A DNA stretch of 64,000 nt from Escherichia coli (GTDB lineage Bacteria; Pseudomonadota; Gammaproteobacteria; Enterobacterales; Enterobacteriaceae). Numbering within the stretch: position 1 is the first letter of the stretch; the number at the start of each line of letters is the position of its first letter. The notes beneath the pieces are model-generated. The model did not search any database, was not told where the DNA came from, and worked only from the letters and a program-made list of their open reading frames with translations. Positions 26,030 to 44,278 of this stretch are shown piece after piece. The stretch lies in NCBI RefSeq assembly GCF_044324875.1, contig NZ_CP172185.1. One strand, 5' to 3'. The position numbers were made by a program, and so were the translations under genes.

Positions 26030-26350
26030 TTGGGGCGAATCCGGCATCGGTGCACAATTGCCGGATGCGGCGTGAACGCCTTATCCGGCCTACCGATCCG
26101 GCACAAGTTTGTAGGCATGATAAGACGCGTCAGCGTCGCATCAGGCATCTGCGCACAATTGCCGGATGCGGTGTGAACGCCTTATCCAGCCCACCGATCC
26201 GGCACAGGTTTGTAGGCATGATAAGACGCGCCAGCGTCGCATCAGGCACCGGTGCACAATTGCCGGATGCGGTGTGAACGCCTTATCCGGCCCACCGATC
26301 CGGCACAAGTTTGTAGGCATGATAAGACGCGCCTGCGTCGCATCAGGCAT
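26030..26350. repeat. BIME cluster: three tandem ~105-bp units each carrying two REP palindromes
   Basis: Repeated gccggatgcggcgtgaacgccttatccggcc and gtaggcatgataagacgcg.cagcgtcgcatcaggca units seen three times. Confidence 0.8.
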
Positions 26351-26360
26351 CCGCGCACAA

Positions 26361-26858
26361 TTATAAAATAATACGCTCCCCGGCACTAAAATCCGTTATG
26401 TCTCCCGCCCAATCAATGGGATATAACCCTCGCGCTACATCGCGATGGAACGTTGAGAATGGCCAATCACTCACCTGCTTTACCCAGCCATGTTTCACTG
26501 GATTTATATAAATATAATCAACATGATGGCGATAATCTTTTGTATTGCGAATGGCATGCTCCCAAAAACGCGGTTGCCAGATATTTTTCAATCCGCAAGC
26601 ATGGGTGAACTGCTTTTTAATCTCCCGCCAGCGAGAGGAAAAATCATCATCGCTTTCGGGTAATGTCCAGATACAGTGCATATGCTCTGGCAAAACTACC
26701 CAGGCGTTAATTTCAAAAGGTCTGGCCTGCTTAACTTTAATAATGGCGTTACGGAGTGTCTGGTACTGGGTGGTCAAAAGTTGGCTTCGACGATTCCGTA
26801 AATTTACCGTGAAAAACCATGTTCCCCCCTTGATGTAATAACGACGATATTCAGACAT
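26361..26858 (-). CDS. rayT: REP-associated tyrosine transposase (IS200/IS605 HuH family)
   Basis: 165-aa ORF MSEYRRYYIKGGTWFFTVNL... with HuH motif (LPEHMHCIW) and REP clusters on both flanks. Confidence 0.85.
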   Translation of the reverse strand: MSEYRRYYIKGGTWFFTVNLRNRRSQLLTTQYQTLRNAIIKVKQARPFEINAWVVLPEHMHCIWTLPESDDDFSSRWREIKKQFTHACGLKNIWQPRFWEHAIRNTKDYRHHVDYIYINPVKHGWVKQVSDWPFSTFHRDVARGLYPIDWAGDITDFSAGERIIL

Positions 26859-26939
26859 GGCGACTCCTTTTTCTCAACGATAAGAAGAAAAGGAAAAGTC
26901 GACAATGAAGTTGTGTTATATCGGGAAAGCAGCTCGCAA

Positions 26940-27030
26940 AAAATTCGCAGACTCGTAGGCATGATAAGACGCGGCAGCGTCGCATCAGGCATCGGTGCAC
27001 TATTGCCGGATGCGGCGTGAACGCCTTATC
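26940..27030. repeat. REP/BIME element upstream of rayT
   Basis: gtaggcatgataagacgcggcagcgtcgcatcaggcat...gccggatgcggcgtgaacgccttatccgtcctac. Confidence 0.7.
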
Positions 27031-27034
27031 CGTC

Positions 27035-27793
27035 CTACAAAATCGTCTCTTCCGTCAAAATCCTGCGCGCGCCTAAAAAATGATCCTGCCAGAAAGGTTC
27101 AGCTAACCGACTTACCCGAATGGTTTCCCCGGTGCGCGGCGACTCGATAAACTGACCGTCTCCCAGATACACGCCCATATGATCGGCAATCTCACGGCTG
27201 TGAATATGGAAAAACAGCAAATCTCCCCGGCGCAGGTCGTTATTCGCCACAATCGTTGCCCGATGGTAGTGATACATCTCATTGGCCGTGCGCGGGAGCT
27301 TCGCCTCGAGGATCTTGTTGTAGGCATAAAAAACCAACCCGCTACAGTCGAAGCCTTGATCGGGCCGCGTGCCGCCCCAGACGTAAGGCTTACCAAGCTG
27401 CTGCTCCAGGCGGTGAATCGCCACTTCGGTGATGTTGTGCAGATGGTCGCTGCTTAAGAAATGGTTGTTCTCCGCCAGCGCCTGCCAGCGTCTGTCACTC
27501 GCCTTGAGCGGCGCAGGAAACCATTCTGGATGCTGTTTTATCTGTTCGCGGTTGTGCTGGCGCAGCGCCTTTCTGCTTTCGGCATTGCCTTCCACAATAT
27601 AGCTGGCCTGTTTTTTCAGATGGGTTTGGTACTGTTTTAATAAACGCGCACGGTTTTGCATCCGCTGGCGGGCGGCGTAGCTGAAAGAGATATGTGATGT
27701 GGTGGCGCTGGCGAGTAAAGGGAGCAAAACGCATAACGAAAACACGCCTGGATGCAGAAATCTGCCGTGAAAGAACGAAGACATGAAGGACAT
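27035..27793 (-). CDS. yafL: NlpC/P60-family peptidoglycan endopeptidase lipoprotein
   Basis: 252-aa ORF with signal peptide and NlpC/P60 catalytic region (YVWGG...GFDCSGLV...HMGVYLG). Confidence 0.85.
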   Translation of the reverse strand: MSFMSSFFHGRFLHPGVFSLCVLLPLLASATTSHISFSYAARQRMQNRARLLKQYQTHLKKQASYIVEGNAESRKALRQHNREQIKQHPEWFPAPLKASDRRWQALAENNHFLSSDHLHNITEVAIHRLEQQLGKPYVWGGTRPDQGFDCSGLVFYAYNKILEAKLPRTANEMYHYHRATIVANNDLRRGDLLFFHIHSREIADHMGVYLGDGQFIESPRTGETIRVSRLAEPFWQDHFLGARRILTEETIL

Positions 27794-29745: not shown

Positions 29746-30500
<755 letters not shown>

Positions 30501-30604
30501 ATCAGCATACTTGTCCTTAGCCTTCTGCAGTGACAGCTGGTAGTACAGCGTGCTTCTGGCCAGCCCTGCAGCCTTTAACAGGTCAGACTGGCAGTGTCCG
30601 CACC

Positions 30605-31135
30605 TCAGGCTCCGGATGACTTTCGTTTTTTCTCCAGCTCCTGGCGCTTTTTTTCCAGGAGATGCTCCTGCATGGCTTTCAGATATGCATTTTCTGCGCG
30701 AAGATAACGCAGCTCATTCTTCATCTCTTCCGGCGTCATGTTTGCCTCGTTTTCATGGGTATCATCAGAACGGGTCATGCTTTTCTCCTTCCAGCGCCTG
30801 ATAAAGGCCTCATTACCAGATTTGCGGTAGCCTTTTATCCAGTTTTTAACCGTGTTGTGGCTGGGAATGTTAAACCGGGCAGCTACCCGGGGTAGAGACT
30901 CAGAATGCCCGAGAGCATAAAGAACCACGCAAAGTTTATCTTCAGGAGAATAGCTACGCTTGTGTCTGCAATCCAGTGCCCGAGGACCGTGAAGAAGAAA
31001 AAGATTAATCCAGTGTGAGAGGCTGGTGTGAGAAAGTTGAAAGAGTTTTGCCGTAGAAATGATGCCTGCATGACCGGCCAGGTAGTGATTTACAGCGGCA
31101 AGTTTTACTTCAAATGAATGTTTCATAAACTGCAC
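30605..31135 (-). CDS. IS3-family transposase OrfA (HTH plus leucine zipper)
   Basis: 176-aa ORF upstream of and out of frame with OrfB, typical of IS3 programmed frameshift architecture. Confidence 0.7.
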   Translation of the reverse strand: MQFMKHSFEVKLAAVNHYLAGHAGIISTAKLFQLSHTSLSHWINLFLLHGPRALDCRHKRSYSPEDKLCVVLYALGHSESLPRVAARFNIPSHNTVKNWIKGYRKSGNEAFIRRWKEKSMTRSDDTHENEANMTPEEMKNELRYLRAENAYLKAMQEHLLEKKRQELEKKRKSSGA

Positions 31136-31203
31136 CTTCAGATGTCAGATTATGTCCAACATTTGGGGTGCAGTTCAAACGCCTTATCCGGCCTACGCCA
31201 GAC

Positions 31204-34982: not shown

Positions 34983-35135
34983 GTTATTAACCTCCTAAAG
35001 CCTGGCGATAACACGATAATTTGCAAATCAGATATTTCCAATATCAGCATTTGTTATCAATTTATTCTGCGCTAAGGCAACTGCCTGATAAGGTGTTAAA
35101 GTTATAAAACCCTTCGCATAAAGGAGTTGTACACC

Positions 35136-35906
35136 GTGCCTGGTTTGAAGATTACGCTTTTGCAGCAACCACTGGTGTGGATGGATGGTCCTGCCAACCT
35201 GCGTCATTTTGATCGTCAACTGGAAGATATTACCGGACGCGATGTGATCGTTCTACCGGAGATGTTTACCAGCGGCTTTGCCATGGAAGCGGCAGCTTCG
35301 TCGCTAGCACAAGATGACGTAGTGAACTGGATGACAGCCAAAGCGCAGCAGTGCAATGCGCTGATTGCAGGCAGTGTTGCATTACAAACGGAGTCTGGTT
35401 CGGTTAACCGCTTTTTGCTGGTTGAGCCAGGCGGCACGGTACATTTTTATGATAAGCGTCATCTGTTCCGCATGGCAGATGAGCATCTGCATTATAAAGC
35501 GGGCAATGCGCGAGTGATTGTGGAATGGCGCGGCTGGCGTATTTTGCCGCTGGTGTGCTACGACTTACGTTTTCCTGTGTGGTCGCGCAATCTCAACGAT
35601 TACGACCTCGCCCTGTACGTCGCCAACTGGCCGGCTCCGCGCTCTCTGCACTGGCAGGCATTGCTGACGGCCCGCGCGATTGAGAATCAAGCGTATGTGG
35701 CGGGATGCAATCGCGTCGGCAGCGATGGCAACGGCTGCCATTATCGCGGTGACAGCCGGGTGATTAATCCACAGGGCGAGATTATCGCCACCGCCGACGC
35801 GCATCAGGCAACGCGCATTGATGCGGAGCTGTCGATGGCGGCATTGCGGGAATATAGAGAAAAGTTTCCGGCATGGCGGGATGCGGATGAGTTTAGGTTG
35901 TGGTGA
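35136..35906 (+). CDS. yafV: Omega-amidase (nitrilase/C-N hydrolase superfamily)
   Basis: ORF from a GTG start ([18 protein letters not shown]...); last conserved gene before the T6SS island. Confidence 0.9.
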
Positions 35907-35924
35907 GTGGGTGTTGTGTTTAGG

Positions 35925-36150
35925 GCCGGGGAGAGTCGGGCTAAGACTACGAAAGCCCGCTCCCCTGCGACCACTTTTATCATAGGAGTGTGGAAGCGCT
36001 TTTCCATCAATTGCGATGACGTCTTTATCATTTGATGAATGGCAATCTCGCATCCAGTTAATAAAGCATTCGTGAAATTATACTGAACGGATACAAGACA
36101 TAACTCTAATTATGGTGCCGTGAACAGGATTACCATTTTCAAAATTACGA
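35925..36150 (-). mobile_element. Internally deleted fragment of an H-repeat (ISAs1-family) element
   Basis: 35945-35970 matches the 3' end of the transposase ORF at 37380-37400 (acgaaagcccgctcccc), joined directly to sequence matching 38150-38370 (e.g. ttttccatcaattgcgatgacgtctttatcat shared); translation gives [27 protein letters not shown], cf. the full copy [27 protein letters not shown]. Confidence 0.55.
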
Positions 36151-36177
36151 TATTATTTGCAGTAATTATGTTATTAA

Positions 36178-36690
36178 TCATTGTGATATTTCCATCTCTG
36201 TGATTAATACCGGATAAGCATTTAATTGCAGAGTTTGCACGAAATTATCGCAGATAACTGGCAATAACAATAACCCATCAGCCCGCTGCTGTAATACCTC
36301 CATTCGTTCTACTGATTCAACATTAACAACCAAACCAAGGGCATTTAGCGATTTAAGGATCTCCAGATGTTCACTCATCCAGCGCAGAGAAAAAGGATCA
36401 TCACCAATTATAAAAACAGGCCCCCAGCCGGTTAATAACTGGCGTTTCATTACGGAGCCAGGATGAAGTCGAGTACATATTACAGGAAATACCCCCTGTT
36501 GCGATGGTTCCGATGATGTGGATAATTCAGAAATATTTTCCATTGTTAGTGAAGAATTAACATCCATTAATAATGGTGAAACAACCTCACTTTCCTTGCT
36601 AGTAATGGCTGCACTAATCTGAAAGGAAAATAACAATATTATTACGTACAAACTTATTTTTAACATAACACATTCAATCCGTTTATTCAT
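36178..36690 (-). CDS. Hypothetical protein with N-terminal signal/TM segment (possible orphan immunity protein)
   Basis: 170-aa ORF, N-terminal hydrophobic stretch LKISLYVIILLFSFQISAA; AT-rich; no recognised domain. Confidence 0.35.
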   Translation of the reverse strand: MNKRIECVMLKISLYVIILLFSFQISAAITSKESEVVSPLLMDVNSSLTMENISELSTSSEPSQQGVFPVICTRLHPGSVMKRQLLTGWGPVFIIGDDPFSLRWMSEHLEILKSLNALGLVVNVESVERMEVLQQRADGLLLLPVICDNFVQTLQLNAYPVLITEMEISQ

Positions 36691-36756
36691 GTTATAGAAT
36701 AATAATGCTATAAATCATCATTAATGTTCAATTATTTAATCACACAATTTAAAAAA

Positions 36757-37260
36757 TCATCGACCAATGTGAATTGGCAATGTACCACTCAAGTTAAAAT
36801 CACTGAATATTTTATCAATTTCTCTTGCAGTTTCTATATATTTAACCTCTTTCGTACTTGCATTATAAATAGCCCAAGCCTCGGGATGGGATGTTCCACC
36901 AAACCTTACAAAAAAACTTGATTTCATATTATTATATAAATTAACATCAGGAAAAGGATCTTCTCCAAAATTAGTAGTATTAAATAATGAAAGTTCGTAT
37001 CGCTTAGAAAATTCTGTTGGTAGGATAGCTTCACTGCCATCAATAGCATTCATCCAGAGTTTGTTACCATTATATTCCAACAATAATCTCTGTTTTGCAT
37101 GTGTCTTATCTCGTTCTTTAACGACAGCGAATACCTTTTTAACAACTTGCTGTGCGGATGGTCCTATTGTATTACCAAAAGCTGGCAACCCGATTTTGCC
37201 ATAAACACTCTCCTGAATGAAATAAATATCCGTTTTATCGGCCTCGACAATATCTACCAT
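36757..37260 (-). CDS. Hypothetical cytoplasmic protein (possible orphan immunity or toxin-tip protein)
   Basis: 167-aa ORF, AT-rich, no recognised catalytic motif; lies between the two H-repeat copies. Confidence 0.35.
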   Translation of the reverse strand: MVDIVEADKTDIYFIQESVYGKIGLPAFGNTIGPSAQQVVKKVFAVVKERDKTHAKQRLLLEYNGNKLWMNAIDGSEAILPTEFSKRYELSLFNTTNFGEDPFPDVNLYNNMKSSFFVRFGGTSHPEAWAIYNASTKEVKYIETAREIDKIFSDFNLSGTLPIHIGR

Positions 37261-37369
37261 TTATCCCTCCAAACAAGACCTGACTCCAGGACAAGAGCAT
37301 AGTGTGTAGTAAACACTTCATGCTCTTGCCCTGACCATTGAAATAACAACTTTCGTTTGTTTACTGTAC

Positions 37370-38530
37370 CAGGGCAAGATTACGAAAGCCCGCTCCCCGC
37401 AAGGACTGACGCCAGGTAGTTTCTGTCCATGGCTGCTTTTCGCATCTTACGTCTTAACCCTGCCTTGAATACCTTATCATTCGTCAAAATATTAATAGCA
37501 ATGTGCCGTATCCCTGAAAATAATTCTGCTGCGTTTCCTCTTCTTATTTTGCAGTCGTCTTCATTCATTACCACGTCCAGACGCCAGTGCAGCTTATTCT
37601 CCACGTGCCAGTGGTTTCGGATTGCTGTGGCGAACTTCTCTGCGGTTAAATCAGCAGAACTGATATAATATCTGACCGTCATTTCGGGCTCTTTCTTTTG
37701 TTCTGCTATTATTGACCGAAAGGAGACTGCCACGCATAATTTCTTCAGACCTTTCCATTCAAACGTGAAATCAATAAGTTCATCAGGGACATCGCAAACA
37801 ATATGAAGACGGATTTCTTCTCTGCCGTGACTCTTTTCACTCATTGCGTAACTGTCATGCTCTGGATTATTTAATTCTTTCAGTGGGAATTTTTCCTCAA
37901 AGGCTTTATTAAGCCGCCCCTGATTTCCTTTTACAGCGAATAAATAATCACCGCCCTGTTTTTGTATCTTCTCTGCAATATCTTTCTGGCAACCCATCGC
38001 ATCAGTTGTGATGATTTTTCCTTTAATATCCAGCATGTTAAGAAGTTCTGGGATAGCTGTAATCTCATTGGATTTCTCATCCGTCTTGATCTGTCCGATG
38101 ACCAGGCTGTGCATTGTTGAGAACGCACTAATGACATGAATCGCTCCCCTGCGGCGACTCTTGTCATAAGAGTGCCGGAGCGTTTTTCCATCAATTGCGA
38201 TGACGTCTTTATCATCTGAAGTATGGCAGTCTCGCATCCAGTTAATAAAGCACTCGTGAAATTTTGCAGGACTGATACAGGATACAACTCTGGCGATGGT
38301 ATCGTGAACAGGAATACCATTTTCAAAATCACCGTATTGTTTTAAAAAATCGAGATGTGTTTCCCCAAAATCCTCTATATCTTCCCAACCTTCTGCACCC
38401 GAAATAACGGCACAAATAGTCAACAGTAGAATATCCGACAATTTATGTTCCACTTTCCAGGCTTGTCTGTAATCGGGAATAACAGAAATATGCTCCATCA
38501 ATTTTTAAGTTCCATTTTGTTCCCCTTAAT
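37370..38530 (-). mobile_element. H-repeat (ISAs1-family) element, apparently intact
   Basis: Encloses a full-length transposase ORF; ends approximate, inverted repeats not resolved by eye. Confidence 0.6.
37380..38501 (-). CDS. ISAs1-family (H-repeat-associated) transposase
   Basis: 373-aa [50 protein letters not shown]... typical of Rhs-associated H-rpt proteins. Confidence 0.8.
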
Positions 38531-38810
38531 TATGTAAGGAGTATTTGATCATGTATAAGTAATAAAAAACAGCCTCAGGTAATGAGGAATATCTCAAATT
38601 TTAAACATAAAATGCGAATTATTTAGTACAAAAAAGCAGCGTTACGTGATCTTTCCCTGTGCCGGTACCTTTGTCGTTTAATCTGGCAGCTAAAGGCATA
38701 TTGTTTTCCTGTCTGGAATATCAGCGACAAAAAATTTAAAAAACGGTAAGGTGCTTAACTCAGTAATAATCACCTTACCGGACATCCTGATTTGTAGCCC
38801 AACAGGTTAA

Positions 38811-39821
38811 TCAAGTAACAGGGATAAACTGACCATCAATCAGCGAAAATACCGGAGCGTAATACCCCATACGCTCTTCACCACTTTCATCTGTAAAACG
38901 GTAAGTCAGTGGGGAATATATTGGTTTCGATTTATTATATAGCTGCACCATACGTCCACCATTCATAACCCGGACGGCATAATCGTCCCACCTGATGGGC
39001 TGCATTCTGGCTTTCCCTCCCTCCACATTATCTTTTGAGAAGAGTGAGAGTAATATGTCATCCTCAGAGTCACCGGTTGTGGCTGACCATGCCTTCAGCG
39101 CCTCTTTGTTATAAGCTTTCAGACGTGCCCTGTCCCGGCTACTGATGATGCTTGCCATTTCGGTATAGGCGGCTTTTAACTTCCGTAACTGCTCGTCGCT
39201 TCCGGTATAGGGGGTTGCCCGCGTCCAGGCCCATTCAGGAAGCCCTGTCACGGTAACTTTTTGAGTGAACTGATACACCTTCATCCCTTTCGGGAAATAG
39301 GTTTCATCAAAATAATCTGGATCAATAAATCCTGGCTCCGCCTGCTCAGCCAAAATCTCTTTCCGGATAACGGGATGCACGCTGTCTGGCCGGGCTTCAG
39401 GTATGCCCTGCTGGTTGATGGTCACTTTTATTGAAGAAAGCAGCGTTTCCTCCTGTTTAATAAAACGAACCAAATCCAGGCTGCATCCTGCTTTTGGAAA
39501 AAAACGCCCCCGTTCTTCCATACTGGCAGGCTTGTCAGAAAACCATCCTAATGCCCCAATCTCCAGACTGATTTCATTTTCTCCATTCGCCATCAGCATC
39601 ATGGCATTGGTGCTGGATATGGCCCCGGTTGAATCACCATTTGCCCGCCAGGCACTTCTTCGGTTACTGAACCCGAGGACGCCATTAGTCTTAATGGCAC
39701 AATATGACTCTTCAATATTAAACTTACTGCGAATTTTTTGCTGGTTATCGTTAGAGCAAAATCCAGTTCCCATAACAACTCCTGACAGTAAAATAACCGA
39801 TATTAAATGTTTTGCCTTCAT
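38811..39821 (-). CDS. Secreted protein, candidate T6SS immunity protein
   Basis: 336-aa ORF with signal peptide and cysteine at the end of the hydrophobic region (MKAKHLISVILLSGVVMGTGFC); immediately downstream of the candidate effector; AT-rich. Confidence 0.45.
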   Translation of the reverse strand: MKAKHLISVILLSGVVMGTGFCSNDNQQKIRSKFNIEESYCAIKTNGVLGFSNRRSAWRANGDSTGAISSTNAMMLMANGENEISLEIGALGWFSDKPASMEERGRFFPKAGCSLDLVRFIKQEETLLSSIKVTINQQGIPEARPDSVHPVIRKEILAEQAEPGFIDPDYFDETYFPKGMKVYQFTQKVTVTGLPEWAWTRATPYTGSDEQLRKLKAAYTEMASIISSRDRARLKAYNKEALKAWSATTGDSEDDILLSLFSKDNVEGGKARMQPIRWDDYAVRVMNGGRMVQLYNKSKPIYSPLTYRFTDESGEERMGYYAPVFSLIDGQFIPVT

Positions 39822-39887
39822 AATTATTCTCTCTCAAAAGGGGAAAATACTCATTATACTGTTCACTTTTAATTTCTGTAATATCAC

Positions 39888-41459
39888 TTAATAATCCATA
39901 CCTATCGTCCACGTTGTCACTGGCTTCGGCGGTGTTACTTTTTTCTCCACAGTGCGTTCTTTACCGTATAAATTAACCCGTAATGGTGAATCCTTTACCT
40001 CCATAGGATCACATAACTGCCACTCAACGGTATCTTTCTTCTCAGGTTTTTCGCTCTTTTCCTTCCCCTTTCCTTTTTCATCAACTTCACCATGAGACAC
40101 ATCAATCTTAAATTCAAACTTCCCTTTAATGCCGTCATGAAATAATGCTAGGTCCAGTCCGTCATCATGTGAATCAAATCCAAATCCAGCTTTCGCTTCT
40201 ATAGAGGCAGTCGCTTCGGCGGTCAGTTGTACAACAAAAACATTCGCCTCAAACGTCGCACTCACCACACCTTTTAAACCGAGCTTGATGTTACTTTCCT
40301 TTACATTAAACTCCCATTTTTTATCCTTTTCAGCGTATACTGCGCCAAGATCAAGATTAATCTCCGCTGAAATCTCGATATAGCATTCAACACTGGCTCC
40401 GTTTTTACGGAGATATTCACGACATCTGTTGACCAATGACTCGACTTTACAATATGCACATATAAATGAAATAATATCGAATCTGAACGACGCTTCAAAA
40501 AATGGGGCACCAAACAAACCATAAAAATGACAGGGGCCATCCTGGATATCGGTATATTGATAGGCATACGATATACCCAGTTTAACGGGTTCTATTTTTG
40601 CACTGAACAATGCATATTTGCGCGTACCATTATTATTGTCAGGATCTGGCGCAAAATATTTATTGACATTCTTGACCAGAGAGTCAATTCTTCCTATCTG
40701 TTCCAGTTGCTTTGTTTGTCGAAGTTTTTTTATCTCTTTTTCATATTCACTTGTGTGTTCAACATTAGCTATTTTTACGCCAAAATCGACAGTCAGGGAA
40801 GTCTTGTTTATCCACTCAAACTCAGCAGTGGTATTTGTCCAGCCGCTACGGAGTTTATTTTTATCCCTGGGCTTGGTGTTCTCCATTGCGTCCCTGGCTT
40901 TTATTCTTTCGTCACGCCGCTCTTTTACTGTTCTCGTCTGTTTTGATGACGAAATCTCATAGCTGAACCCTGTAGTAAACCTAATTTCCACTGTAGGATA
41001 AACATCAATTTCAACATAATTGCCACATTCGTAACAACTGTCAATTCTGACTGAATAATGGGCAGGTTCATAATGATTCTTAAGTGGAGAGGATATTGCC
41101 CCCAAATAATCCCATGGTACTCGAAATGTACCCATAGCAATTATTTCACCTTCAGACAAGTTATCATCCAAAGTGACCTTATTAGGTATTCCGAAAGGTT
41201 GCAGTATCTTATGATTATTTTCTGATTCTTCCTCTAACCATGCCTCATGTGTTCCACTTTTATCGCACTGGTAGGTAATGGTAATTATACCATCACATCC
41301 GGAACCATCATCCAGTAGCTTAAAACGCGCCACTCCTTCTTTTGACCAGAAATGTTTCTCGCCGGCCTCTGGAAAATCACTAATAACATCAAAAATACAT
41401 GGATCAGGAATGCCGCATTCCACACAGGGCTTTCCGGCTGTCGAAGATGGAGATGTCAT
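39888..41459 (-). CDS. Candidate T6SS cargo effector of unknown function
   Basis: 523-aa ORF downstream of the DUF4123 adaptor gene; Cys-rich N-terminus (CVECGIPDPC, CYECGNY), charged coiled-coil-like middle, Lys/Glu-rich C-terminus; no motif I recognise; AT-rich. Confidence 0.45.
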   Translation of the reverse strand: MTSPSSTAGKPCVECGIPDPCIFDVISDFPEAGEKHFWSKEGVARFKLLDDGSGCDGIITITYQCDKSGTHEAWLEEESENNHKILQPFGIPNKVTLDDNLSEGEIIAMGTFRVPWDYLGAISSPLKNHYEPAHYSVRIDSCYECGNYVEIDVYPTVEIRFTTGFSYEISSSKQTRTVKERRDERIKARDAMENTKPRDKNKLRSGWTNTTAEFEWINKTSLTVDFGVKIANVEHTSEYEKEIKKLRQTKQLEQIGRIDSLVKNVNKYFAPDPDNNNGTRKYALFSAKIEPVKLGISYAYQYTDIQDGPCHFYGLFGAPFFEASFRFDIISFICAYCKVESLVNRCREYLRKNGASVECYIEISAEINLDLGAVYAEKDKKWEFNVKESNIKLGLKGVVSATFEANVFVVQLTAEATASIEAKAGFGFDSHDDGLDLALFHDGIKGKFEFKIDVSHGEVDEKGKGKEKSEKPEKKDTVEWQLCDPMEVKDSPLRVNLYGKERTVEKKVTPPKPVTTWTIGMDY

Positions 41460-41480
41460 ATAATCTATCCGTTTGTCTTT

Positions 41481-42323
41481 TTATTGTGGGATAAATCCCA
41501 GTTCCTGTTGTGCAAGTTCATGTACCCGAATATGTCCCGGGTATGACTGATTGCTGAGTTGTTCATACCAGTCATCCGGAATATATCTGAGATCGATTAT
41601 ATTTTTTTTCAGTAATATAAGCGTCATTGTTCTGACGGAACGATCATCTGCTATATTTAATGACTGGCAAAAAGAGAAATAATCTTCTGCCAGAATTCGG
41701 GATGATTCAGCTTTTGATGAATCATCCCATCCGTTTTTATCTACATTTTCTTCGATAAATGCAGATAATATATCAAGATAATTATCCCGTGCCTTTCGTT
41801 CCAGTTGGCTATATTGTCTGTAACTCAGCGTCAGTTGTGATGGCCGTTCTGCCCTTATATTCATAGTTTCTGCGGGACGGACGGAAGAAAAATTATCCTC
41901 ACGACATTCTTCACCATAACGGGTACTTAGCTGTCTGACGGGACTGATAAAAGAAAGACGCTGGCGGGGGGTCAGAACTTCCACTAATACCCATATATTC
42001 CGGGGATCATAAAATCGCATGAGAACAGGTTTCTCCTGTTCGGGGATCCTAACCCACAGATAACGTCTGAAGTGTTGCTGTAGCTCACGCATGGATGACT
42101 CAGAAGTCAGATATATTCCCCATGGCGACGCCTTAACACTCAGCCATGCTTCAACCTCCGGAACGACTTCCACGAGATAGGGGGCTAGCGCGACCAGATC
42201 CAGTTGTATGGGTTCTGCATACAGACAACAGTGCGGGGGATTCACCTCGTTCAGAAAATCCAGCAATCCTTCCTCCACAGCGCCATCCACAATGGCGTAC
42301 TGCACGGGTGCCGTTTCCATCAC
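41481..42323 (-). CDS. DUF4123-family T6SS effector adaptor/chaperone (Tap/Tec-like)
   Basis: 280-aa ORF with the family's N-terminal YAIVDGA-type motif; start overlaps the vgrG stop (ATGA). Confidence 0.7.
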   Translation of the reverse strand: MMETAPVQYAIVDGAVEEGLLDFLNEVNPPHCCLYAEPIQLDLVALAPYLVEVVPEVEAWLSVKASPWGIYLTSESSMRELQQHFRRYLWVRIPEQEKPVLMRFYDPRNIWVLVEVLTPRQRLSFISPVRQLSTRYGEECREDNFSSVRPAETMNIRAERPSQLTLSYRQYSQLERKARDNYLDILSAFIEENVDKNGWDDSSKAESSRILAEDYFSFCQSLNIADDRSVRTMTLILLKKNIIDLRYIPDDWYEQLSNQSYPGHIRVHELAQQELGFIPQ

Positions 42324-44278
42324 TTATCCTCCTTCGGGCAGTGCGCCACAAACATTGTCCCGCTTCCGGCTGCGGCTTTCAGGATCACCGGGCGCATCGG
42401 CAGGATCACGTCTCCCGGACTGCCTCCGCCGTTAAGATTGATTTTCGCGCCCTTAATATCCACGCCGCCGGAATGGATCACCACAAATGAACCGCCCACC
42501 CGCAGACTGATTTTGCTGTCGCTCTGTAAAACAATATCGCCCTGTACGCTGATACCCAGCGCGCCGCTTATTTTCTGTGCCAGATCGCCTTTCACCTCCA
42601 GCCCCTGATTGCCCTCTGTCAGGCTGACATGGTCTTTGGTGGTTTTATGGTCCTGTTTACCTTCAACCGTCACTTTCCGGTCATTTGCCACCACCAGGGA
42701 TTCATCATGCCCGATGCTGACCGTCCGGTCATAGTTGACCCGCTTATCCTTGCTGTTCAGCACAACGACTTGCATATTTTTCTGTGCGTGCAGGTAAATT
42801 TCTTCCTTGTCCGTCGCGTCCTCGAACCGCAGTTCATTAAAGCCGCTTCCTTTATAGGTCTTCGATCGTATCGTCATCTGCGTCTTCGTCCCCGGCAGAC
42901 TCCCCGGCGAACGGTTGTCCTCATGGTACGTCCGCCCCATGATTATCGGCTGGTCCGGGTCGCCGTTCAGGAAGTCTACAATCACTTCCTGGCCGATGCG
43001 CGGTATCGCCAGGTTACCAAATCCCGGCCCCGCCCACGCCTGCGACACCCTCACCCAGCATGAACTCGCCTCCGTTGCCGGGTTATACCTGTCCCAGTGA
43101 AACTGCACTCGCACACGTCCGTGTTCGTCGCAGAAGATTTCCTCTCCCGCAGGACCGGTGACAATGGCGCTCTGTGGCCCGTCCACCTTCGGTTTGCTTT
43201 GCAGCCGTGGACGCCACGTCCGGTCCGCCGGTATCACCTCTAACTGATTTCCCAGCATGGTTCCTCTCCCCTGGCTGCCGTGCAGCGCCTGCGGCTGGTC
43301 CCCTGACAGAATACTCTGTACCACCTGCCATTCACGGTTCAGCATCTTCTGCGGATGCCCCGTCAGCGTAAACCGCGTTCCCGGCCACAGCTTCGGTGAA
43401 TTACTCTGCCCTGTGGCCTTTTCCGCATCACTGCGCAGGCTCTCCATCTGGTACAGCGTGAAATCCTTGCCGTGCTGTTCATCCTTGAACCTTCCCGGAT
43501 AATCAAATATCTCATACTGCTCCAGCTGTCCGTTCAGGTTCTCACCCTGCTGCTCATACATCCCCGGCCAGTCCGGCACCTTAAACGTGTAATCCTGGCT
43601 CTGCACCGACGACGGGCGGACATACGCCTCATAACGGAACATACTGACACACTCTGTCTCCGCTCCTGCCGATGTGTCCGGGTTAAACGGAAGCTCTCCC
43701 GCCTGTGACAGCCCCGCCACATCGTCGCACAGCGTCAGCTTCTGCTCCGGACTGTCCGCCGCAAACCGCTCAAAGAAGAAAATTCCCTCCTCCGCCCACA
43801 ACCGCGCCAGAAACGCCAGGTCGCTTTCCCCGTACTGGACACAGAACTCCCGCGCCGGATGGTCCTCATAAAACAGCGGTGTCCACTCCGTGACGCCGTT
43901 CTCGTTCAGTAACGTGGCCGATATCGTCCGGATATCCTGCTGCTGGAAGATACGGAAGTTCTGCCGCAGCCCGCACCGCCATAACGGCGGCTCAATACGC
44001 AGGTGATAACGCATCTGCCAGCCATTGTTCTCCTGCATGCCAAAACCCGCCACCACGCCGGTGACATAACGCAGCGGGATGACGCCCTGCCAGATGGTCA
44101 GCGTCGCCTTCTTCTCCAGCAGCATCTCCGCCGTCTGCATAAAAGAGTCGCTGGCAACATCCACACTCATCACAAACGGATAAGACTGGTTCTGGATTAA
44201 CCTGAAATGCACCACTGCAAAGGTGTCCGGCTCCTGGCCGTCAATCTCCAGCGTAAAGCGCAGACCTTTTAAGGACAT
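42320..44278 (-). CDS. vgrG: T6SS spike protein VgrG
   Basis: 652-aa ORF MSLKGLRFTLEIDGQE... with gp27/gp5-like VgrG architecture and C-terminal beta-helical repeats. Confidence 0.9.
   Translation of the reverse strand: MSLKGLRFTLEIDGQEPDTFAVVHFRLIQNQSYPFVMSVDVASDSFMQTAEMLLEKKATLTIWQGVIPLRYVTGVVAGFGMQENNGWQMRYHLRIEPPLWRCGLRQNFRIFQQQDIRTISATLLNENGVTEWTPLFYEDHPAREFCVQYGESDLAFLARLWAEEGIFFFERFAADSPEQKLTLCDDVAGLSQAGELPFNPDTSAGAETECVSMFRYEAYVRPSSVQSQDYTFKVPDWPGMYEQQGENLNGQLEQYEIFDYPGRFKDEQHGKDFTLYQMESLRSDAEKATGQSNSPKLWPGTRFTLTGHPQKMLNREWQVVQSILSGDQPQALHGSQGRGTMLGNQLEVIPADRTWRPRLQSKPKVDGPQSAIVTGPAGEEIFCDEHGRVRVQFHWDRYNPATEASSCWVRVSQAWAGPGFGNLAIPRIGQEVIVDFLNGDPDQPIIMGRTYHEDNRSPGSLPGTKTQMTIRSKTYKGSGFNELRFEDATDKEEIYLHAQKNMQVVVLNSKDKRVNYDRTVSIGHDESLVVANDRKVTVEGKQDHKTTKDHVSLTEGNQGLEVKGDLAQKISGALGISVQGDIVLQSDSKISLRVGGSFVVIHSGGVDIKGAKINLNGGGSPGDVILPMRPVILKAAAGSGTMFVAHCPKEDK

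Follow-up and report, generated by a model that had tools for sequence, protein, structure and literature searches.

Two direct H-rpt copies at the yafV border of an Escherichia coli T6SS island as a probable substrate for deletion by homologous recombination

The window analysed here is a 64,000-nucleotide stretch of Escherichia coli DNA, the best match of which is strain 300444 (99.7%). Part of it probably corresponds to the yafV-proximal end of the aspV T6SS island, where two H-rpt copies in direct orientation very probably supply the homology for recombination that deletes the DNA between them. The copies would matter without transposing, by offering portable homology: homologous recombination by the host would delete the DNA between them, and gene conversion would patch the copies themselves. 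Passive homology of this kind is the best-supported role of the H-rpt copies. Recombination was deduced from genome comparison and not from direct observation; the survey set consisted of 5,426 complete E. coli genomes. The H-rpt arrangement at the yafV edge is common, annotated and already known, and represents ordinary, well understood biology.

Organization of the border

The last conserved chromosomal gene ahead of the island is yafV, the stop codon of which lies at 35904-35906. The order from left to right in strain 300444 is fadE, ivy, yafV, an ISAs1 pseudogene, an 'integrating conjugative element protein', a hypothetical protein and an ISEc1-family transposase. Further right follow two hypothetical proteins, DUF4123, VgrG, Hcp and tssB, C, E, F and G, and after tssG come tagH, tssJ, K, icmH (DotU-type), tssH and onward. 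A preliminary description made from the sequence alone had called this region a T6SS island border, and the yafV-ivy-fadE genes on the left and DUF4123/VgrG/Hcp/tss genes on the right of strain 300444 bear this out. Strain 042 has the same island border as the window, and the 042 genome paper assigns the T6SS to the aspV tRNA locus. The window contains the tss genes and the yafV side of the island but does not reach aspV; a position of the island between aspV and yafV is probable from collinear strains and from the 042 genome paper. The features of the border are listed in Table 1.

Table 1. Features at and around the yafV-side border, in window coordinates
Feature	Position	Strand	Basis or remark
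yafV (2-oxoglutaramate amidase)	35136..35906	+	annotation of 99.7%-identical strain 300444, mapped by offset; ORF list
30-bp spacer from yafV stop to H-rpt terminus	35907..35936	.	side-by-side junction sequences
Fossil block 1: terminal inverted repeat CGGGCTAAGACTACG, stop codon, last transposase codons	35937..35965	-	
Deletion-junction octamer CGCTCCCC (microhomology)	35958..35965	.	overlap of fossil blocks 1 and 2
Fossil block 2: internal transposase segment, truncated on 5' side	35958..36158	-	
Gene for secreted DUF2859 / PFL_4695-family 'integrating conjugative element' protein	36178..36690	-	TIGR03765, PF11072
167-aa ORF, small uncharacterised family	36757..37260	-	remote homologues
21-nt-arm hairpin in spacer between 167-aa ORF and complete H-rpt	37287..37333		inverted repeat, 81% complementary
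Complete H-rpt / ISEc1-like element (ISAs1 family), 1290 bp	37370..38659	-	alignment to other strains
Terminal inverted repeat, transposase 3' side: CAGGGCAAGATTACG	37370..37384		
Transposase ORF, intact, 372-373 aa	37380..38501	-	NF033564 match
Crossover interval inside complete copy	37750..37802		site-by-site three-way alignment
Terminal inverted repeat, transposase 5' side (reverse complement CAGGGAAAGATCACG)	38645..38659		
Two unannotated genes (336-aa lipoprotein-like, 523-aa)	38811..41459	-	ORF list, strain 300444 annotation

Junctions were compared side by side in the window, K-12, L004, L008, L009 and L010. The spacer after yafV is common to strains with and without H-rpt at this position. 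The copy next to yafV, referred to here as the fossil, had been described as following the yafV stop codon immediately; it begins 30 bp after the stop, at 35937, and is a 222-bp remnant of an H-rpt/ISEc1-like (ISAs1-family) element ending at 36158. Self-comparison of 35500-39000 gave two direct-repeat families, which are collinear and correspond to the two fossil blocks. In block 1, 35943-35965 is identical to 37376-37398 at 22 of 23 positions in the self-comparison. Block 2 (35958-36158) matches 38142-38342 over 201 nt with 84% identity by self-comparison and alignment, with a BLAST E value of about 1e-55 to 1e-58 against the complete copy. The two-block match beside yafV that had been noticed from the sequence was thus recovered when the alignment was run.

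The octamer CGCTCCCC was read twice from the sequence of the complete copy, at 37391-37398 and 38142-38149. Because it stands at both breakpoints, the fossil corresponds to a 751-bp internal deletion within 8-bp microhomology, in keeping with the earlier suggestion of an internally deleted second copy and with the annotation of an ISAs1 pseudogene in RefSeq ('ISAs1 family transposase; internal stop; missing N- and C-terminus' in strains 042 and 300444). Similarity ends near 36158, so that the fossil also lacks the 5' 317 bp of the element (38343-38659). It keeps 222 of about 1291 bp, the 751-bp deletion breaks the frame and only one inverted repeat is present; the fossil is a pseudogene and not a functional ISAs1 member. 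The two copies point the same way, their transposase sequences lying on the minus strand. With the full-length H-rpt copies found in the 5,426 E. coli genomes and among plasmids, the internal block of the fossil shares no more than 80-88% identity. The search of both sources brought up no close full-length counterpart of this divergent block, the best match being 85-88% identical. Fossil alleles of distant strains (042 versus S88) differ by 5-13% per 100 bp, and full-copy-like bases were seen around 36032-36045 in the B2-type fossil.

The ends of the complete element were defined by a 1291-bp copy in strain ETEC4069, which aligns to 37370 and 38659 exactly; the element end ...TCTTTCCCTG is kept in four strains. 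The preliminary description had ended the element at 38530, about 130 bp too early. The two terminal inverted repeats match at 13 of 15 positions, and both they and the length of the element agree with the ISAs1 family (about 1.2-1.3 kb). The transposase matched NF033564 transpos_ISAs1 with an E value of 1.6e-125 and a score of 418 (cut-off 70) over positions 1-314 of 314. With the whole ISAs1 model covered and both inverted repeats present, the earlier view of this copy as an intact H-rpt in direct orientation was upheld, and on paper the predicted element has all that an ISAs1 element needs. Its flanks, ...TTTACTGTAC and TGCCGGTACC..., have no direct repeat in common that would represent a target-site duplication; for a hybrid such as the complete copy, the flanks of which derive from different parental copies, no duplication would be expected. 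The authors of the E. coli W genome paper note that H-rpt has not been observed to transpose.

Recombination between the copies and rival histories

Strains of the PO06101/ATCC 8739 type lack the DUF2859 gene and the 167-aa ORF and carry a yafV-side element with the same terminus and the same CGCTCCCC junction as the fossil. Informative sites were taken as the positions separating the fossil of the window from its complete copy. The first 12 consecutive sites of the PO06101/ATCC 8739 element (35970-36038) are fossil-type; of the 32 sites from 36045 onwards, 29 are full-copy-type and three agree with 042 copy 1. Identity of the fossil-like part is 94.8% with fossils and does not exceed 82.8% with full copies; for the second part it is 98.8% with the cassette-adjacent copy of 042 and 82.6% with fossils. 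The ATCC 8739-type element is the product expected of a crossover between the fossil and the complete copy. The hybrid junction was 100% identical over 621 bp in 30/30 genomes among the matches listed, which suggests a recent single origin. The longest perfect runs shared by the fossil and the complete copy are 32 and 23 bp; since 84% homology with such short perfect runs is weak for RecA, crossovers between them should be rare, and this fits the single apparent origin of the hybrid. Of the deletion or exchange of the intervening cassette that had been proposed for this configuration, deletion gained support from the ATCC 8739-type hybrids without the two ORFs. Exchange did not: across genomes the slot holds the same two genes at at least 98.5% identity, a 76%-identical allele pair or nothing.

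The complete copy of the window is a hybrid in its turn. In 042 and in most of the 539 genomes with the whole 3-kb arrangement there are two tandem H-rpt copies, the second of which is split by a group II intron. The complete copy of the window matches 042 copy 1 at 9/10 informative sites up to 37749 and 042 copy 2 at 42/44 informative sites from 37803, and contains neither the group II intron nor the copy junction of the 042 tandem. On this three-way alignment, the 'intact' H-rpt of the window is a hybrid of the tandem pair found in 042. Only strain 300444 among the 5,426 genomes is collinear with the window across the arrangement. In a comparison of the window with S88 per 100 bp, both H-rpt segments were 86-95% identical and unique DNA was 96-100% identical; this divergence of H-rpt relative to its surroundings would fit exchange among the paralogous H-rpt copies of each genome.

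The survey counts were obtained from joined BLAST pieces and are approximate, and the classes can overlap, the ATCC 8739 class for example falling into both the fossil and the undeleted-end counts: the yafV end with the fossil (at least 80% query coverage) was found in 1,007 genomes, the whole 3-kb arrangement in 539, the DUF2859 gene and 167-aa ORF both complete in 541, any part of these two genes in 758, and an undeleted H-rpt 3' end abutting yafV in about 2,871. In other states of the border, yafV lies directly beside tRNA-Asp, is followed by a small Hcp remnant with no H-rpt, or is abutted by a full H-rpt downstream of an Rhs toxin and immunity gene. The yafV-border locus corresponds to b0215-b0221, for which the E. 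coli W genome paper records an Rhs element. Undeleted H-rpt copies at the yafV site are 97-99% like the complete copy of the window.

The fossil cannot move, because it has one end and no transposase, and it probably arose by deletion in place. The ATCC 8739-type and window hybrids would have arisen by RecA-type crossing-over, and the direction of the events was probably deletion and not insertion. Simple in-place decay fails to explain the divergence of the fossil, since an undeleted copy at the same site is 97% like the complete copy. It is conceivable, though rather improbable, that the fossil was instead formed by joining a resident H-rpt terminus at CGCTCCCC to a divergent H-rpt that arrived with the DUF2859 segment. 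Such a junction would agree with an internal block at most 88% identical to any full-length H-rpt (5,426 genomes and plasmids) next to a terminal 23 bp identical at 22/23 positions to the complete copy, at a site where undeleted copies are 97-99% like the complete copy of the window; strains without the T6SS also share the fossil and the DUF2859 gene as a block to 36712. Both histories yield an identical sequence, however, and the window cannot discriminate between them; no donor element with the divergent block was found, and a full H-rpt beside a DUF2859 allele in strain L012 indicates that complete elements do occupy the slot.

A mosaic pattern alone carries no direction, so the ATCC 8739-type hybrid might in principle be ancestral, the two ORFs having been inserted homologously from a circle, or might reflect conversion without crossover, of which patches are seen elsewhere (in the B2-type fossil, around 36032-36045). 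We regard either course as quite unlikely. The hybrid junction is invariant in the 30 listed genomes and fossil alleles are diverged (5-13% per 100 bp), so that the fossil would seem the older of the two and the hybrid recent, and deletion the likelier direction; conversion on its own leaves the absence of 1.2 kb of unique DNA unexplained. Still less credence, very little indeed, can be given to the fossil and the complete copy forming a composite transposon that brought the two ORFs to the site. A direct-orientation composite needs outer ends of two different types, and these are present, but no target-site duplication surrounds the unit, the left junction is identical in strains with H-rpt only and no cassette, and the fossil has no transposase and one end of its own. 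The cassette moreover occurs once per genome and nearly always at this site (median 1, maximum 2 places), and the E. coli W genome paper reports that H-rpt transposition was not observed. Composite-transposon membership was rejected on the lack of a flanking duplication and the single place per genome. A chance or low-complexity match between the two copies can be dismissed altogether in view of the 201 nt at 84% identity (E about 1e-55), the two collinear blocks and the presence of the fossil in about 1,000 genomes.

The comparison connects yafF of K-12 (a pseudogene), the double H-rpt of ATCC 8739 and the 'fossil - two genes - H-rpt' order of 042 and S88 as alternative forms of a single locus, related through recombination between H-rpt copies. 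Island variants cease to be homologous precisely where the complete H-rpt has its outer end, and at this point the VgrG-linked effector module changes. These observations support the long-held view of H-rpt as recombination substrates rather than active transposons. Their practical value lies mainly in annotation and strain comparison, and they raise no new question.

Genes in and beside the slot

As described earlier, the copies bracket two small ORFs; both lie on the minus strand. The product of the first (36178-36690) bears a signal peptide and matched TIGR03765 (E 2.2e-35) and PF11072 (E 2.4e-28). The 167-aa protein gave no match in family profile and Pfam searches. Its 31 remote homologues come from Serratia, Morganella, Rahnella and metagenomes, those of the three genera being named only 'hypothetical'; most full-length members measure about 190 aa. 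One member of the family lies directly after an orphan hcp and another directly after tssB-tssC. In all four complete non-E. coli loci examined the family gene is followed by a 145-157-aa protein; these downstream proteins look, by eye, like putative hydrophobic multi-pass membrane proteins, and a family gene with a membrane-like protein downstream has the layout of an effector-immunity pair. The E. coli partner of the 167-aa protein is the secreted DUF2859 protein and not a membrane-like protein.

Both the DUF2859 gene (dN/dS 0.32 versus a diverged allele) and the 167-aa ORF are under purifying selection. A 76%-identical allele of the gene pair adjoins a full H-rpt. A model fold obtained from the two-gene slot had no solved relative, and PADLOC gave no match for the two ORFs of the slot and two neighbouring genes. 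That the two genes constitute a functional, undescribed T6SS-linked pair is a tentative suggestion, which we consider doubtful. They do not form one unit, because other strains share the parts separately: strains with a different aspV island match the window only to 36712 (the fossil and the DUF2859 gene), and a strain in which IS1 cuts the 167-aa ORF matches the window only from 36996.

Identity of the 167-aa family with the Serratia effectors Ssp6 or Ssp4 was considered and rejected, as the N-termini disagree: those deduced from published primers are MAKG for ssp6 and MADA for SMDB11_0810, and the Serratia homologue of the 167-aa protein begins with MDDIN. Against Ssp6 there is also the presence of two transmembrane helices in Sip6, and against Ssp4 its mostly alpha-helical structure (13 helices, one beta-sheet) and its location in the ilv cluster.

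The variable effector module starts where the complete H-rpt ends. It consists of the 523-aa/336-aa gene pair after DUF4123 in the window and 042, of DUF2169-Cpe1-Cpi1 in S88 and of Rhs in others. The window and S88 lose their homology to each other at about 38600-38660, where the complete element has its outer end. The 336-aa and 523-aa genes lie downstream of DUF4123-VgrG-Hcp; family searches with both proteins gave no matches, nor did Pfam for the 523-aa protein. An Rfam scan of 35000-42000 (E up to 0.1) detected no RNA family, and promoter and terminator counts in 35850-38850 were no higher than in shuffled sequence.

Comparison with known systems

Tandem and defective copies are typical of H-rpt elements. 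The H-rpt/ISEc1 of E. coli Rhs elements resembles the copy in the window in its length (about 1.29 kb), its ISAs1 transposase and its short terminal inverted repeats, and likewise follows closely downstream of a toxin-immunity module; other strains have the order Rhs core, immunity, H-rpt and yafV at this very position. In the window, by contrast, the upstream module is a VgrG-DUF4123 cargo pair with no Rhs protein, and the complete copy is a recombinant of two tandem copies. IS-mediated deletion offers a further parallel, in which direct IS repeats bracket unique DNA and the derivatives retain one hybrid IS with the DNA gone. Unlike two intact IS copies, one partner is here a 222-bp fossil of 84% identity and would be a much poorer substrate.

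The K-12 pseudogene yafF (b4503) is, like the fossil, an H-rpt remnant abutting yafV at the same nucleotide and in the same orientation, and both may be regarded as leftovers of the same island border. It differs in that the 3' 280 bp of H-rpt run through without interruption, at 98.9% identity to the complete copy of the window, and in having neither the 751-bp deletion nor the divergent internal block of the fossil. Unlike the window, the K-12 border has lost the T6SS and the two ORFs. A literature search on yafF or 'H repeat' and on H-rpt recombination returned only the E. coli W genome paper.

In a recent survey ISAs1 was primarily linked to chromosomal orphan islands (P = 1.23e-30; ISME Commun 2026, PMC13098142). 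The orphan T6SS islands of that survey resemble the window in having ISAs1 beside hcp/vgrG/effector genes; in the window, unlike in those islands, ISAs1 borders a complete T6SS cluster.

H-rpt remnants at the yafV border

The internal block of the fossil H-rpt copy next to yafV (window 35966–36158) was compared with 5,426 E. coli genomes and a plasmid collection, and no full-length relative above ~85–88% identity was found in either. The H-rpt elements of the B2-type strains (Table) carry a different internal deletion, which corresponds to window positions 37817–38128; decay of the border H-rpt copies has thus set in on more than one independent occasion. The group II intron of strain 042 is gone from the window through recombination between two tandem H-rpt copies.

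When window positions 35901–38660 were aligned with the S88 locus, both H-rpt segments were 86–95% identical, in contrast to 96–100% for the surrounding unique DNA. This lower identity suggests that the segments have undergone gene conversion with the other H-rpt copies of each genome.

Features located in the window and in the compared loci (L001, strain 042; L013, S88; L007, another B2-type locus)
Feature	Location	Strand	Remarks
H-rpt with internal deletion	L013 7317–8081; L007 7494–8258		Downstream of Cpe1–Cpi1 in B2-type strains
Second, tandem H-rpt copy	L001 8982–12002		Interrupted by group II intron (ltrA)
Repeat copies, several	Window 26036–27038		Period ~101 bp; 85–90% identical; match strain 042 yafJ–lpcA intergenic sequence
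~1.43 kb insertion	Window 29746–31176		Between yafJ and lpcA; IS3-family orfA/orfB (176 and 240 aa)
167-aa ORF	Window 36757–37260	Minus	Also loci L015, L016, L017, L020, L023
Genes for 523-aa and 336-aa proteins	Window 38811–41459	Minus	Downstream of DUF4123–VgrG
VgrG gene	Window 42320–44278	Minus	652-aa ORF

The 167-aa ORF and the genes downstream of DUF4123–VgrG

A small family of uncharacterized proteins of ~190 aa (Serratia, Morganella, Rahnella and metagenomes) includes the 167-aa ORF; the genes for its members lie 3′ of an orphan hcp or 3′ of tssBC. A hydrophobic protein of 145–157 aa is encoded after the family member in all four complete non-E. coli loci, and the arrangement looks like that of an effector–immunity pair. 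No solved structural relative was found for the AF2 model of the 167-aa protein.

The 523-aa and 336-aa proteins had no matches in NCBIfam or PADLOC; Pfam, searched with the 523-aa protein alone, also gave none. Their location makes them candidates for an effector and a lipoprotein-like immunity protein. For strain 300444, which is near-identical, the annotation lists the VgrG gene itself as a pseudogene lacking the C-terminus; in the window its ORF has 652 aa.

The yafJ–lpcA region

The ~101 bp period repeats are probably of the REP/BIME type. The IS3-family insertion, located in a repeat-rich intergenic region, is missing in strains 042 and 300444; its size and target suggest that it may be IS1397.
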